DNA of 32,616 nt from Promethearchaeota archaeon (GTDB taxonomy: Archaea; Asgardarchaeota; Lokiarchaeia; Sigyniarchaeales; SOKP01). The notes beneath the pieces were generated by a model. It was not told where the DNA came from and made no database searches. It was given only the letters and a program-made list of their open reading frames with translations. The stretch is from positions 1-32,616 of the forward strand of contig JAUVXW010000044.1 in assembly GCA_030603385.1 (NCBI GenBank), read 5' to 3'. How positions within the stretch are numbered: the stretch's first letter is position 1; the number at the start of each line of letters is the position of its first letter. Position numbers and translations under genes: made by a program. This document shows positions 5,369 to 30,704 of the stretch, one piece after another.

Positions 5369-5932
5369 CTATTTTAAATTATTTAAAATTTGAACTGATA
5401 ATGATTCAAAGGCTTTATCGATGTTCTCATTTGATTTTGCTGAAGTTTCAATATATTGTACATTATAGAGATCGGATTTTTCTTCTGCATCCTCAAATAA
5501 AACCAACCTTTCATCTTTTTTATCAATCTTATTACCAATAATCATAAAGGGAATCTCTCCACTTAATTCCTTTAATTTAGAAATCCAAAAATCAATGTTA
5601 TCGAAAGATTCTCTATTTATAACATCGTATACTACAAAAGCACCAACAGCTTGGACAAAATAATATTCATTGCTAAATAATTTATCGTGCTGACCACCTA
5701 AATCCCAGAAATAAAGTTTAAATCCTTTTTGTTTAACATCTTCTTTCAATTTGGGATTTTTTATATCGAGTCTATCTACTATCATACTTAAATCTATTTC
5801 CTTAATTAAAAAATTAGCTCCGACAGTTTGTATGTATTCTTCACTAAATAAATCATCTACATATCGTGCTAAGAGACTAGTTTTTCCTACTCCCGCATCT
5901 CCACACAGAATCACTTTACCGCGATATGACAT
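5369..5932 (-). CDS. Rab-like small GTPase (Ras superfamily)
   Basis: G1 GDAGVGKT, G2 QTVG, G3 WDLGGQ, G4 NKID, G5 ETSAK. No C-terminal Cys prenylation motif. Confidence 0.93.
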   Translation of the reverse strand: MSYRGKVILCGDAGVGKTSLLARYVDDLFSEEYIQTVGANFLIKEIDLSMIVDRLDIKNPKLKEDVKQKGFKLYFWDLGGQHDKLFSNEYYFVQAVGAFVVYDVINRESFDNIDFWISKLKELSGEIPFMIIGNKIDKKDERLVLFEDAEEKSDLYNVQYIETSAKSNENIDKAFESLSVQILNNLK

Positions 5933-6051: not shown

Positions 6052-6888
6052 TTACCTTGTATATTGTACTTTTTTAGTTGTTAATTTAATTAATTTGCAC
6101 TGGCTTGTAATAAAATATTTGAAGAGATGCTCATAGCCTATAATTTGTTTTGGAGTACCATGCTCTAACCATAATCCTGAAGTATATTCTGGTGCTTCTT
6201 TTACCTGATCGAGGGTAGTAAGCAAGAATTGGTTATCTACAATTAATAATCCAAAGGGTAATACACTATCTCCTTCAATTGAGTGGATTACGACAGATAC
6301 TTTTAGTAGTTTTTTAATTTCTTCTTTTAAAACTTCGTTATATTTCAATGCGATAACAATCTGGATATCGGTAGAAAATTTTTTATTCCATAGTTCTCGT
6401 AAAACCCATTCGTATCCTCCTAATTCATTCATAAGTAAGTCAGGAGTAAGAATAAAAAAGATTCGTTCTTTTGCAGTATTGATAAGTTCTTTTATTTTTT
6501 TCCTGATTTTTAATCTTGAACTTATTGCCCAAACACGAGGTTCAGTTTCTTCTTGAGTAATCTCAAGTTCAGTAATCACTTTCTCTAGTACTAGTGTATC
6601 TTCAATCTTTCGCTTGTATTCATCTCGTATTGCCTTAAATATCTTTGGTATGGGAATCACTTGGTAATTAGCCCCTCTCTTAATAGGTTCTTTTTGAATG
6701 AAGCCCTTATCTATTAATCTGTTTAAAGAATCATAAACTCTTGCTCTATCTACTCCTGAATGTTTAGCAATGTCAGCAGGGCTTAATATCTTATATTTAC
6801 ATAAAGTTAGCAATACTTTTGAATCATTTTTGGTAAAATTTAATGATTGAAGTGCTTCCTCAATTTCAGATTCTTCTAGTTCAGTCAT
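6052..6888 (-). CDS. TrmB-family transcriptional regulator
   Basis: N-terminal wHTH (SPADIAKHSGVDRARVYDSLNRLIDKGFI), coiled linker, C-terminal PLD-like effector domain (ELINTAKERIFF...LLIVDN). Confidence 0.88.
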   Translation of the reverse strand: MTELEESEIEEALQSLNFTKNDSKVLLTLCKYKILSPADIAKHSGVDRARVYDSLNRLIDKGFIQKEPIKRGANYQVIPIPKIFKAIRDEYKRKIEDTLVLEKVITELEITQEETEPRVWAISSRLKIRKKIKELINTAKERIFFILTPDLLMNELGGYEWVLRELWNKKFSTDIQIVIALKYNEVLKEEIKKLLKVSVVIHSIEGDSVLPFGLLIVDNQFLLTTLDQVKEAPEYTSGLWLEHGTPKQIIGYEHLFKYFITSQCKLIKLTTKKVQYTR

Positions 6889-7318: not shown

Positions 7319-7448
7319 TTCGAACATAACGATTCGAAAATTTTCTATGAAGAGATTATCAATTCGAATCATAACATTTATATAATAGAAATGTGTAGTT
7401 ATAATTAATTAACATCTAAATAATAATTCAATAAAAATAAAGTGGAGG
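7319..7448 (+). promoter_or_regulatory. Putative histone-gene promoter: TTCGAA palindromes, TATA box (TTTATATA 7377-7384), RBS GGAGG (7444-7448)
   Basis: Motifs read directly from the sequence. RBS lies 7 nt before ATG 7456. Confidence 0.55.
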
Positions 7449-7455
7449 AATAAAA

Positions 7456-7718
7456 ATGGCTAAAAAAGCACCTGCTAAAAAATCTGAAGGGTACATCGCC
7501 AAAAGGACTTAGGGATTCCCTAATTGTCCGGGTATGCGCCTATCCGCAGATTAATGAAGAAGGAGGGAGCGGACTTAGTTGCCGCAGAAGCTCTTGACAA
7601 ATTAATTAATTTCTTAGAGAGTTCAGCAGCTACTGCCACTAAGGACGCGATCAAAGTTTGCAAAGAAGATAAGCGTAAGAGAGTAACTGCCGCGGATATT
7701 CGCGCTGCAACTCGATAA
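7456..7718 (+). CDS. Archaeal histone with Lys-rich N-terminal tail; join(7456..7503,7536..7718), 76 aa after removal of a putative 32-nt intron
   Basis: Exon 1 is MAKKAPAKKSEGYIAK behind a strong RBS. Exon 2 is APIRRLMKKEGADLVAAEALDKL...KRKRVTAADIRAATR, a histone fold (APIxR alpha1, GA-x-V loop 1, R-x-x-V-x-x-x-D loop 2). The joined IAKAPIRRL aligns with HMf-type LPIAPIGRI. Confidence 0.88.
7504..7535 (+). other. Putative bulge-helix-bulge/loop (BHB/BHL) mRNA intron, 32 nt
   Basis: AGGACTTAGGGATTCCCTAATTGTCCGGGTAT. Inner stems GGAC/GTCC and TTAGGG/CCCTAA, central helix GCCA/GGGU (3 of 4 pairs), bulges AA^A and AU^G. Contains an in-frame TAG and shifts the frame. Confidence 0.75.
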
Positions 7719-7749: not shown

Positions 7750-7765
7750 TTTTTTTTCTTTTTTT
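7750..7765 (+). terminator. Oligo-T archaeal terminator downstream of the histone gene
   Basis: T-rich tract ~30 nt after the stop, between convergent genes. Confidence 0.5.
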
Positions 7766-7776
7766 ATTGATAGGTT

Positions 7777-8301
7777 TTAGAAATTTTCAAAGAATTCTCT
7801 ATTCAAGTATTTATTAATATTCTCCTCGATTTTCTTTTTTACTGCCTCTAAACCTTCAGGTAATACACGAGTTTTTCCAACTATATCAATAAATCCAAGT
7901 TCAGACCCATATCTCGGAATCAAATGAAAATGTAGGTGTTCAATGGTACCACCTGCATTTCTTCCTTGGTTAATACCAATATTATAACCTTTGGGATTAT
8001 ACAGATCATTCAGTAGTAGTTGAATTCCTTGTATTGCTCGGGTTATATGCAGTAATTCCTCTTTGGTTAAATCAAGGAATTTTGTTATGTGTCTCTGAGT
8101 TACAATCATTAAATGTGCAGGATTGTATGGATACAAATTCAAAACAATAAAGCATAAATCATCTTCATATACCTTTAAAGACACAACACGCTCATCATTG
8201 TCCCTTACAGCACATAGGATACAATCTACATTTGGTCTTGCTTTCCCTTGAACATAATCTAGCTTTCCTAAAGCTTGTAACCAATCTTTAAAAACGGACA
8301 T
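7777..8301 (-). CDS. HIT-family nucleotide hydrolase (Ap4A phosphorylase/hydrolase-like)
   Basis: CILC, LNLYPYNPAHLMI, GYNIGINQGRNAGGTIEHLHFHLIPR (HxHxH triad). Confidence 0.92.
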   Translation of the reverse strand: MSVFKDWLQALGKLDYVQGKARPNVDCILCAVRDNDERVVSLKVYEDDLCFIVLNLYPYNPAHLMIVTQRHITKFLDLTKEELLHITRAIQGIQLLLNDLYNPKGYNIGINQGRNAGGTIEHLHFHLIPRYGSELGFIDIVGKTRVLPEGLEAVKKKIEENINKYLNREFFENF

Positions 8302-30526: not shown

Positions 30527-30599
30527 AGCTTAAAAATTATCCAAAAGTAAGTTATTAATTTTTCTTCATTAAATATATTAATTTAGTAATTTAAAGAAG

Positions 30600-30704
30600 C
30601 GCAGATGGAGGGAATTGAACCCCCGAGCGCTTACGCGCACCGGCTCTTTAGGTTATTGAGAAAAACTCTCGAAGCCGGCGTCTTACCAGCTAGGCTACAT
30701 CTGC
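30600..30704 (-). tRNA. tRNA-Ser(CGA) with 22-nt intron at 37/38 (30646-30667)
   Basis: Acceptor GCAGATG/CATCTGC with G73, D-loop TAGCTGGTAA, anticodon stem CCGGC/GCCGG, loop TT-CGA-G^A, long variable arm GCGC-GTAA-GCGC, T-arm GGGGG-TTCAATT-CCCTC. CCA not encoded. Confidence 0.92.

Follow-up and report, generated by a model that had tools for sequence, protein, structure and literature searches.

A 32-nt relaxed bulge-helix-bulge insert in a Promethearchaeota histone gene is very probably a spliced intron and may belong to a family that spreads between species

How can an archaeal histone be made from a gene whose reading frame stops after 18 codons? The question is raised by a histone gene on contig JAUVXW010000044.1 of a Promethearchaeota archaeon (assembly GCA_030603385.1), whose 32,616 nucleotides (nt) form the stretch analysed here ("the window", contig C45 of the genome under study, G000). 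This genome is a metagenome bin of 3.9 Mb with 31% GC, 94% completeness and 7% contamination. The unspliced frame, which starts at an ATG (7456) preceded by a ribosome binding site, reads MAKKAPAKKSEGYIAKRT and ends within a hairpin at a TAG (7510-7512), and the histone fold resumes past the insert in another frame. Removing positions 7504-7535 (32 nt) joins ATCGCCAAA to GCGCCTATC at the predicted exon junction and yields a 76-aa tailed histone, ...GYIAK-APIRR.... A first-pass annotation had proposed that this segment is excised by EndA, the tRNA-splicing endonuclease, and that its splicing may gate histone production. Its account of the interrupted frame and of the exact segment to be removed was borne out, and an EndA-type intron at these boundaries in an Asgard archaeon is strongly supported. 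In our assessment, the insert is such an intron in an mRNA and is very probably spliced.

Because only one register gives the best orthologue match and intronless orthologues exist, the boundary is fixed independently of RNA structure. We scored 46 orthologous loci within the genus (54 genomes), of which 41 lack any insert. Lys-Ala occurs at the junction in all 41, always in GYIAK-APIRR or a close variant, and 7504-7535 is the sole best-matching register within +/-6 nt. Eight genus genomes were left unscored because they have no match to the tailed histone type; the neighbouring HIT gene was seen, among these eight, in G009 alone, where the histone is truncated by the contig end. In-frame repeats in the Lys/Ala/Pro tail, which the aligner called as inserts (L267, L268, L309), were rejected as such.

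The RNA at these boundaries can form the motif known as bulge-helix-bulge (BHB). It has the two 3-nt bulges and the 4-bp central helix of archaeal BHB introns, with the proper exon and intron sides, but only in the relaxed class. Cutting after the second base of each bulge restores the mature sequence. The central helix GCCA/GGGU forms three of four pairs (G-U, C-G, C-G and an A.G mismatch), an inner helix is present, and a contiguous outer helix is missing: no exon-exon pair directly flanks the central helix, and a distal GGGUA/UAUCC helix alone forms. By the classes of a preprint on Asgard tRNAs (bioRxiv 10.64898/2026.10.13.758758), the histone intron is "relaxed", not canonical. The introns in the RNA polymerase A' (RpoA') and tRNA-Lys genes of the same genome likewise fall short of the canonical form. 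The helix, both bulges and the inner stem GGAC/GUCC are as the first-pass annotation drew them. At the apex, its UUAGGG/CCCUAA pairing stands, but its 6-bp stem with a triloop is better drawn as a UUAGG-GAUUC-CCUAA pentaloop, which gives a 9-bp stem overall. The motif arises by chance with a frequency of 0.0045 in 20,000 shuffles of the insert, and of 0.001-0.004 at random genomic positions. The isolated hairpin is modestly stable (z = -1.7). Besides the TAG in the frame of exon 1, the insert has a TAA (7521-7523) in the frame of exon 2.

Table 1. Features of the histone locus, related inserts and neighbouring genes. Positions refer to the window unless a contig is given; the promoter and terminator functions are inferred from sequence.
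Feature	Position	Strand	Remarks
TATA-box-like TTTATATA	7377-7384	+	Likely histone promoter
Shine-Dalgarno sequence GTGGAGGA	7442-7449	+	In 27/29 orthologues; GGAGGA in all
Exon 1, MAKKAPAKKSEGYIAK	7456-7503	+	16 codons; N-terminal tail rich in Lys, beginning of helix 1
Central helix, 5' strand GCCA	7498-7501	+	Exon side
5' bulge AA^A	7502-7504	+	Predicted cut after 7503
Relaxed BHB intron, 32 nt	7504-7535	+	1 bulge base, 9-bp stem with 2-nt UU bulge and GAUUC pentaloop, GGGU, AU
Central helix, 3' strand GGGU	7530-7533	+	Intron side; A7501.G7530 mismatch
3' bulge AU^G	7534-7536	+	Predicted cut after 7535
Exon 2, APIRR...AATR and stop	7536-7718	+	Histone fold PF00808 (E 1e-9); TAA 7716-7718
T-rich tract	7750-7766	+	Likely archaeal terminator
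Histone-gene introns, 30 nt	G000:C36:121047 and 121207 (L317); C6:1296 (L318)		4 central pairs
RpoA' codon 43 insert, 30 nt	G000:C4:220013 (L222)		Contains TGA; RpoA' single-copy
uL11 BHB-type insert, 37 nt	G000:C41:68127 (L319)		Frameshifting; near codon 17
tRNA-Lys(UUU) with 30-nt intron	C39:32508-32613 (L324)
Other tRNAs with ~30-nt non-canonical introns	C34:-82603; C10:-8130; C27:87582
tRNA-Ser(CGA), 22-nt intron at 37/38	30599-30704	-	Central helix with C.U mismatch; missed by default tRNA scan
Ras-family small GTPase	5369-5932	-	An Asgard signature
TrmB regulator	6052-6888		Divergent neighbour of the GTPase gene
HIT protein	7777-8301
Selenocysteine tRNA	G000:C41:48216-48308		ARAGORN call

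Apart from the insert, the histone gene is intact and, judging by its substitutions, under purifying selection. A TTTATATAATAGAAATG stretch is also found upstream of several orthologues, where the available upstream sequence extends that far. Exon 2 is 85-97% identical to genus orthologues, and the ratio of nonsynonymous to synonymous change (pN/pS) over the histone core is 0.05-0.13, against carriers and non-carriers of the insert alike. Five histone genes occur in the genome, and the interrupted gene is the only tailed histone found there; its tail exon is dropped from the annotation of this genome. By its fold and its tail peptide AKKAPAKK, which resembles the peptide AKKKTPAKK of HLoB.2 (bioRxiv 10.64898/2026.07.02.735847), it is a candidate for the Asgard tailed histones of the HLoB type, whose Lys-rich N-terminal tail is disordered. 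Tailed histones belong to the proteins of Loki cells that are most abundant and modified, according to the same preprint.

The histone coding sequence (CDS) is more diverged at synonymous sites than the neighbouring trmB gene in all 20 testable close pairs, although the pairs are not independent. The same holds between intronless close relatives (0.47 versus 0.02 for G005/G065). This high synonymous divergence suggests frequent replacement of the histone gene. In G019, which both RpoA' and trmB place as the sister of G000, the histone marks a breakpoint due to recombination or assembly (L030, G019:C14): its trmB is 96.8% identical to the window, but its HIT gene only 70%. Given this foreign segment from the histone onward, G019 was excluded from dating the intron.

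The site is also occupied in other species, with an intron in three to four of the 46 loci. G077 (CAZALK010000007.1) and G004 (JAGXNO010000040.1) carry 30-nt inserts at the identical base, and G068 carries one at the same base or 1 nt before. A pattern scan of 185,579 genomes gave 27 matches, among which only G077 and G004 are titled archaea. The insert interiors of G000, G004 and G077 cannot be aligned. Even so, each of them keeps base pairing at the three stem positions adjoining the central helix, as G-C/A-U/A-U, G-C/G-C/C-G or A-U/G-U/G-C depending on the species. Pairing is thus kept while the sequence changes, and the non-covarying insertion against which the first-pass annotation had cautioned is not what we see. 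In G077, the central helix is perfect (4/4 pairs). The GCC codon at the central helix is present in all three exact-site carriers, versus 4 of the 41 intronless orthologues.

Similar inserts are found in other genes. The genome has at least ten in protein genes, with four in the five histone genes and six in 1,063 others. The latter were found by motif-free protein-to-DNA alignment to the relative G024, which covered roughly one third of the genes (962 kb) and may miss inserts close to gene ends, so that the count is a lower bound. Their hosts are RpoA', uL11, UvrB, thioredoxin, a small GTPase and a hexapeptide-repeat protein. Three of the five histone genes are interrupted, and the tailless paralogues on C4 and C10 are intact. 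The second site on C36 is common to G000 and G007. Relatives have further inserts at histone codons 23, 35, 50, 58 and 65 and in RpoA'. Across related genomes, histone genes of three types are interrupted at no fewer than eight different positions, and inserts in histone or RpoA' genes alone are present in at least 13 of the 54 genus genomes. In RpoA', 30-nt BHB-type inserts occur at codons 43 or 79 in five genomes and 85-nt inserts at codon 80 in two; 65-nt calls in two genomes resemble two adjacent introns (RpoA' loci other than that of G000: L253, L220, L249, L250, L223, L224, L225, L254). Two partial matches to a second histone type (G016:C35:28262-28390 and G022:C61:20936-21079) may hide N-terminal introns.

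These inserts have a common architecture. At the BHB register, at least three of four central pairs form in 22 of 22 inserts located by protein-to-DNA alignment, versus at most six at any shift of 1-5 nt. When an inner stem of at least 3 bp is also demanded, 18 inserts qualify at the BHB register and at most one at shifted registers. The 3' bulge begins with A in all 22. Judged by homology, no register scores better than the BHB register in any of the 22, and in 11 it is the sole best. Family members measure 29-37 nt, with a typical build of 1 + 9-bp stem + pentaloop + 4 + 2 = 30 nt and common loops AAUUC, AACUC and GAUUC. The RpoA' insert has a G.A mismatch at the central position that is also mismatched in the histone intron; the tRNA-Lys(UUU) intron shows this mismatch too and follows the typical 30-nt build. 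The family also occupies a non-canonical tRNA position, and the introns of tRNA-Lys(UUU) and tRNA-Asp have the loop type of the mRNA introns. Those of tRNA-Ser(CGA) and tRNA-Ser(GGA) have three central pairs only. Ab initio genome scans for BHB motifs without homology gave no excess over shifted-geometry controls. A descriptor that ranked the histone intron first had been built after seeing that intron; it is circular and was not counted.

The genome encodes two EndA paralogues (alpha on C44, beta on C9) and RtcB (C39). The best match of EndA alpha in the PDB is Aeropyrum EndA alpha, and it keeps the catalytic triad Y125/H133/K164 and residues R157/W183 as well as the CSL residues K44/R46 of the Aeropyrum enzyme. 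EndA beta is without the catalytic His. The specificity loop of Aeropyrum EndA confers broad specificity, and K44 is the RNA-recognition residue (PMC3241643). The host appears to have both a broad-specificity EndA and an RNA ligase. In the mechanism that we propose, EndA would cut after the second base of each bulge and RtcB would join the exons, releasing a 32-nt intron that is perhaps circular. Spliced mRNA would give the tailed histone, and unspliced mRNA only the 18-aa peptide. Given a TGA-containing insert in the single-copy RpoA' gene and a frameshifting insert in uL11, mRNA splicing must presumably work in this organism; relaxed-motif splicing in its mRNA seems close to obligatory.

The distribution of the inserts bears on their origin. 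A relative that is ~95% identical in the flanks is intronless. On an RpoA' DNA tree (22 rows, quick tree), G000, G004 and G077 are rejected as a clade (approximately unbiased test, p-AU 8e-64). Seven codons across the site are identical in G000 and G004, while 58% of their synonymous codons differ; the shared codons are rare in intronless genes (GCC as above, GCG in 2/41, CGC in 1/41). In RpoA', the codon 43 intron of G000 lies within a dense synonymous tract of ~50 codons that is foreign relative to its sister G019, and the near flanks of the intron are identical in G000 and the distant G067. Because the carriers are not a clade and have short flanking tracts in common, the introns look horizontally spread, not like an inherited switch of the HAC1/XBP1 kind. 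The dedicated gate of that kind envisaged at first does not agree with an intron that occurs in so few congeners, scattered on the species tree, and that is one of several similar inserts in unrelated genes. Horizontal transfer of intron and flanks is the simplest reading, with a clearer signal for RpoA' than for the histone site, where ancestral presence followed by many losses may also have occurred.

We lean, on balance, towards a mobile family of ~30-nt EndA-spliced introns in tRNA and mRNA that would move from species to species although no enzyme is encoded in them, with abundant transcripts as targets and histone mRNAs foremost. Such elements would come and go, and would cross species boundaries along with short stretches of adjoining exon; they would be retained only at sites where the exon supplies the rest of the motif. 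Their movement could proceed via DNA recombination, homing in trans or an RNA route. The introns would be tolerated passengers, and histone synthesis would depend on splicing as a side effect. Homing-endonuclease introns are marked by an encoded endonuclease or by long alleles, and this 32-nt insert has neither. We found no long, endonuclease-encoding allele at the histone or RpoA' sites in ~130 loci, the longest being 85 nt, and no long allele of the histone intron in the 46 genus loci and 32 further loci.

Several observations weigh against the reading as spliced, mobile introns. No spliced read or peptide was seen; in the runs examined (X17, X20, X13 and X12), the RNA came from an intronless relative only, as contigs. 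A contig of run X17 joins 7503 to an exon-2-like sequence, but its nine synonymous differences in 30 nt mark it as that intronless relative. The same allele occurs in DNA-type run X12 of the same study, so the joined contig is uninformative about splicing. The minimum-energy fold is 3.9 kcal/mol more stable than the one compatible with the BHB motif (0.5-6.6 for the other 21 inserts), and splicing may therefore be inefficient. Relaxed motifs often arise by chance if boundaries may shift (bioRxiv 10.64898/2026.10.13.758758), and the 22 inserts are not all independent. With regard to mobility, the genome (94% complete) yielded neither a reverse transcriptase (PF00078) nor a confident LAGLIDADG_3 gene, with one sub-threshold match to the latter and other endonuclease families not searched. 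The flanking codons in common could partly reflect structural constraint, not transfer.

A different explanation is that splicing does take place and that selection maintains the intron as a regulatory gate, which would make the supply of histone depend on EndA/RtcB activity. Introns are strongly over-represented in histone genes: four in ~1.1 kb of histone sequence compared with six in 962 kb is ~600-fold (p = 2e-8 without the index intron), although histones received closer scrutiny than the other genes. In about 31 kb of small, basic and conserved genes, ribosomal-protein-like by composition, no intron other than, at most, that of uL11 was found, so abundance may not be the whole explanation of the enrichment. 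The enrichment is compatible with biased targeting as well as with selection for a gate that depends on splicing. Because of it, and with three types of histone gene interrupted at many positions across related genomes, a regulatory role deserves some weight. The weak motif and the competing fold could make splicing tunable, and such a role was proposed for cbf5 (PMC2738675). However, the patchy presence of the intron argues against a gate as the main reason. Most congeners, including the ~95%-identical relative, lack it, the C4 and C10 paralogues are uninterrupted in the same genome, and intron positions are not conserved. Moreover, the enrichment is equally expected if very abundant or very conserved RNAs or genes are the preferred targets. 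We consider a gate unlikely.

The insert might instead stay in the mRNA of a recently inactivated histone copy that is buffered by its four paralogues. The relaxed motif, the intronless state of the closest relative seen and the absence of RNA support are compatible with this improbable idea. However, no other lesion is found, as promoter, Shine-Dalgarno sequence and both exons are intact, and the low pN/pS does not suggest decay. Inactivation would kill the sole tailed histone found and leave three of five histone genes dead. Equivalent inserts occur in essential single-copy genes, and the same site is used in three species with stems that are different but paired.

Translational handling of the insert, by re-initiation, frameshifting or ribosome hopping, is very improbable. 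Initiation at TTG 7524, a possibility raised in the first-pass annotation, is in the frame of exon 2 and would give a tailless 64-aa histone, MSGYAPIRR..., a little like the tailless paralogues. However, this start lies within the stem and is not conserved, and the G077 insert has a stop with no in-frame start afterwards. A shift into the exon 2 frame would run into the TAA at 7521, and the codon at the landing site (TAT) does not match the take-off codon AAA. The conserved tail exon and the BHB register of the 22 inserts would also be left unexplained. Finally, an assembly or binning artefact, despite the contamination of the bin, is scarcely credible, since independent genomes of other studies (two other species) have inserts at the same base, the flanking genes are 96.8% (trmB) and ~89-90% identical to the relatives closest by RpoA', and the insert is not copied from its flanks.

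Elsewhere in G000, single in-frame stops lie within otherwise conserved genes (C4:117552, C4:110209, C1:11666), one of them a TAG within a 460-aa gene at 87% identity.

Several known systems resemble the proposed introns in part. In HAC1/XBP1 mRNAs, Ire1 cuts a short intron at two stem-loops and a tRNA ligase (RtcB in metazoa) joins the exons, in a signal-controlled and conserved process. The likeness lies in a short intron, an endonuclease with a ligase, and a frame restored by splicing; the histone intron differs in its BHB substrate, in a nuclease that would be EndA and in a position that is not conserved. Archaeal rRNA genes contain homing BHB introns and short hairpin remnants, with a patchy distribution and flanking tracts that look co-transferred. 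BHB boundaries, patchiness and flanking tracts recur here, but no endonuclease-encoding version was found.

For coding regions, the documented case is the intron in the cbf5 pre-mRNA of Desulfurococcales and Sulfolobales, with splicing shown by cDNA (Watanabe 2002; Yokobori 2009, PMC2738675). Like the histone intron, it is short, lies inside the CDS and has a relaxed BHB motif cut after the second bulge base (a predicted cut for the histone). It is processed by a hetero-oligomeric EndA, and this genome has a two-subunit EndA closest to Aeropyrum alpha. However, the cbf5 intron occupies one position, the catalytic Asp codon, in one gene and was gained once and inherited in Crenarchaeota. By contrast, the introns described here interrupt PF00808 histone and other genes of Promethearchaeota at many positions, number at least ten per genome, have a patchy and apparently horizontal spread, and are known from sequence alone. 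A second mRNA substrate of the splicing endonuclease is Haloferax volcanii HVO_1309, with a BHB intron in the 5' untranslated region (UTR) whose removal appears to aid expression (Schwarz 2020, PMC7714728). Unlike the histone intron, it leaves the frame uninterrupted and is a single case. Non-canonical tRNA introns of Asgard archaea have BHB or relaxed motifs and repeated lineage-specific gains (bioRxiv 10.64898/2026.10.13.758758). The mRNA introns described here have the motif and such repeated gains in common with these and with Thermoproteales tRNA introns, and the 30-nt build and pentaloop type of the family recur in the tRNA-Lys(UUU) intron of this genome. The host of the histone intron is an mRNA, so its removal must restore the reading frame.

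The searchable literature holds one archaeal coding-region intron (cbf5, PMC2738675) and one UTR case (PMC7714728). The preprint on Asgard tRNA introns (bioRxiv 10.64898/2026.10.13.758758) never mentions mRNA or cbf5, that on Asgard histones (bioRxiv 10.64898/2026.07.02.735847) never mentions introns, and no report of Asgard mRNA introns was found in the literature searched (subscription papers not covered). The novel aspects are the host gene, how many introns one genome carries, the architecture common to tRNA and mRNA introns, and the evidence for horizontal spread. Nothing here demonstrates or implies a connection with spliceosomal introns. If the introns are spliced, mRNA splicing by the tRNA machinery would be routine in this lineage, and gene callers would truncate or miss core genes. 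Because near-identical genomes differ in whether the intron is present, the way in which archaeal introns arrive and spread can be put to a direct test. If these introns do form a mobile family, then relatives of the eukaryotic host lineage would have protein genes invaded by introns and would splice mRNA routinely, and the supply of histone might be tied to the capacity for splicing.
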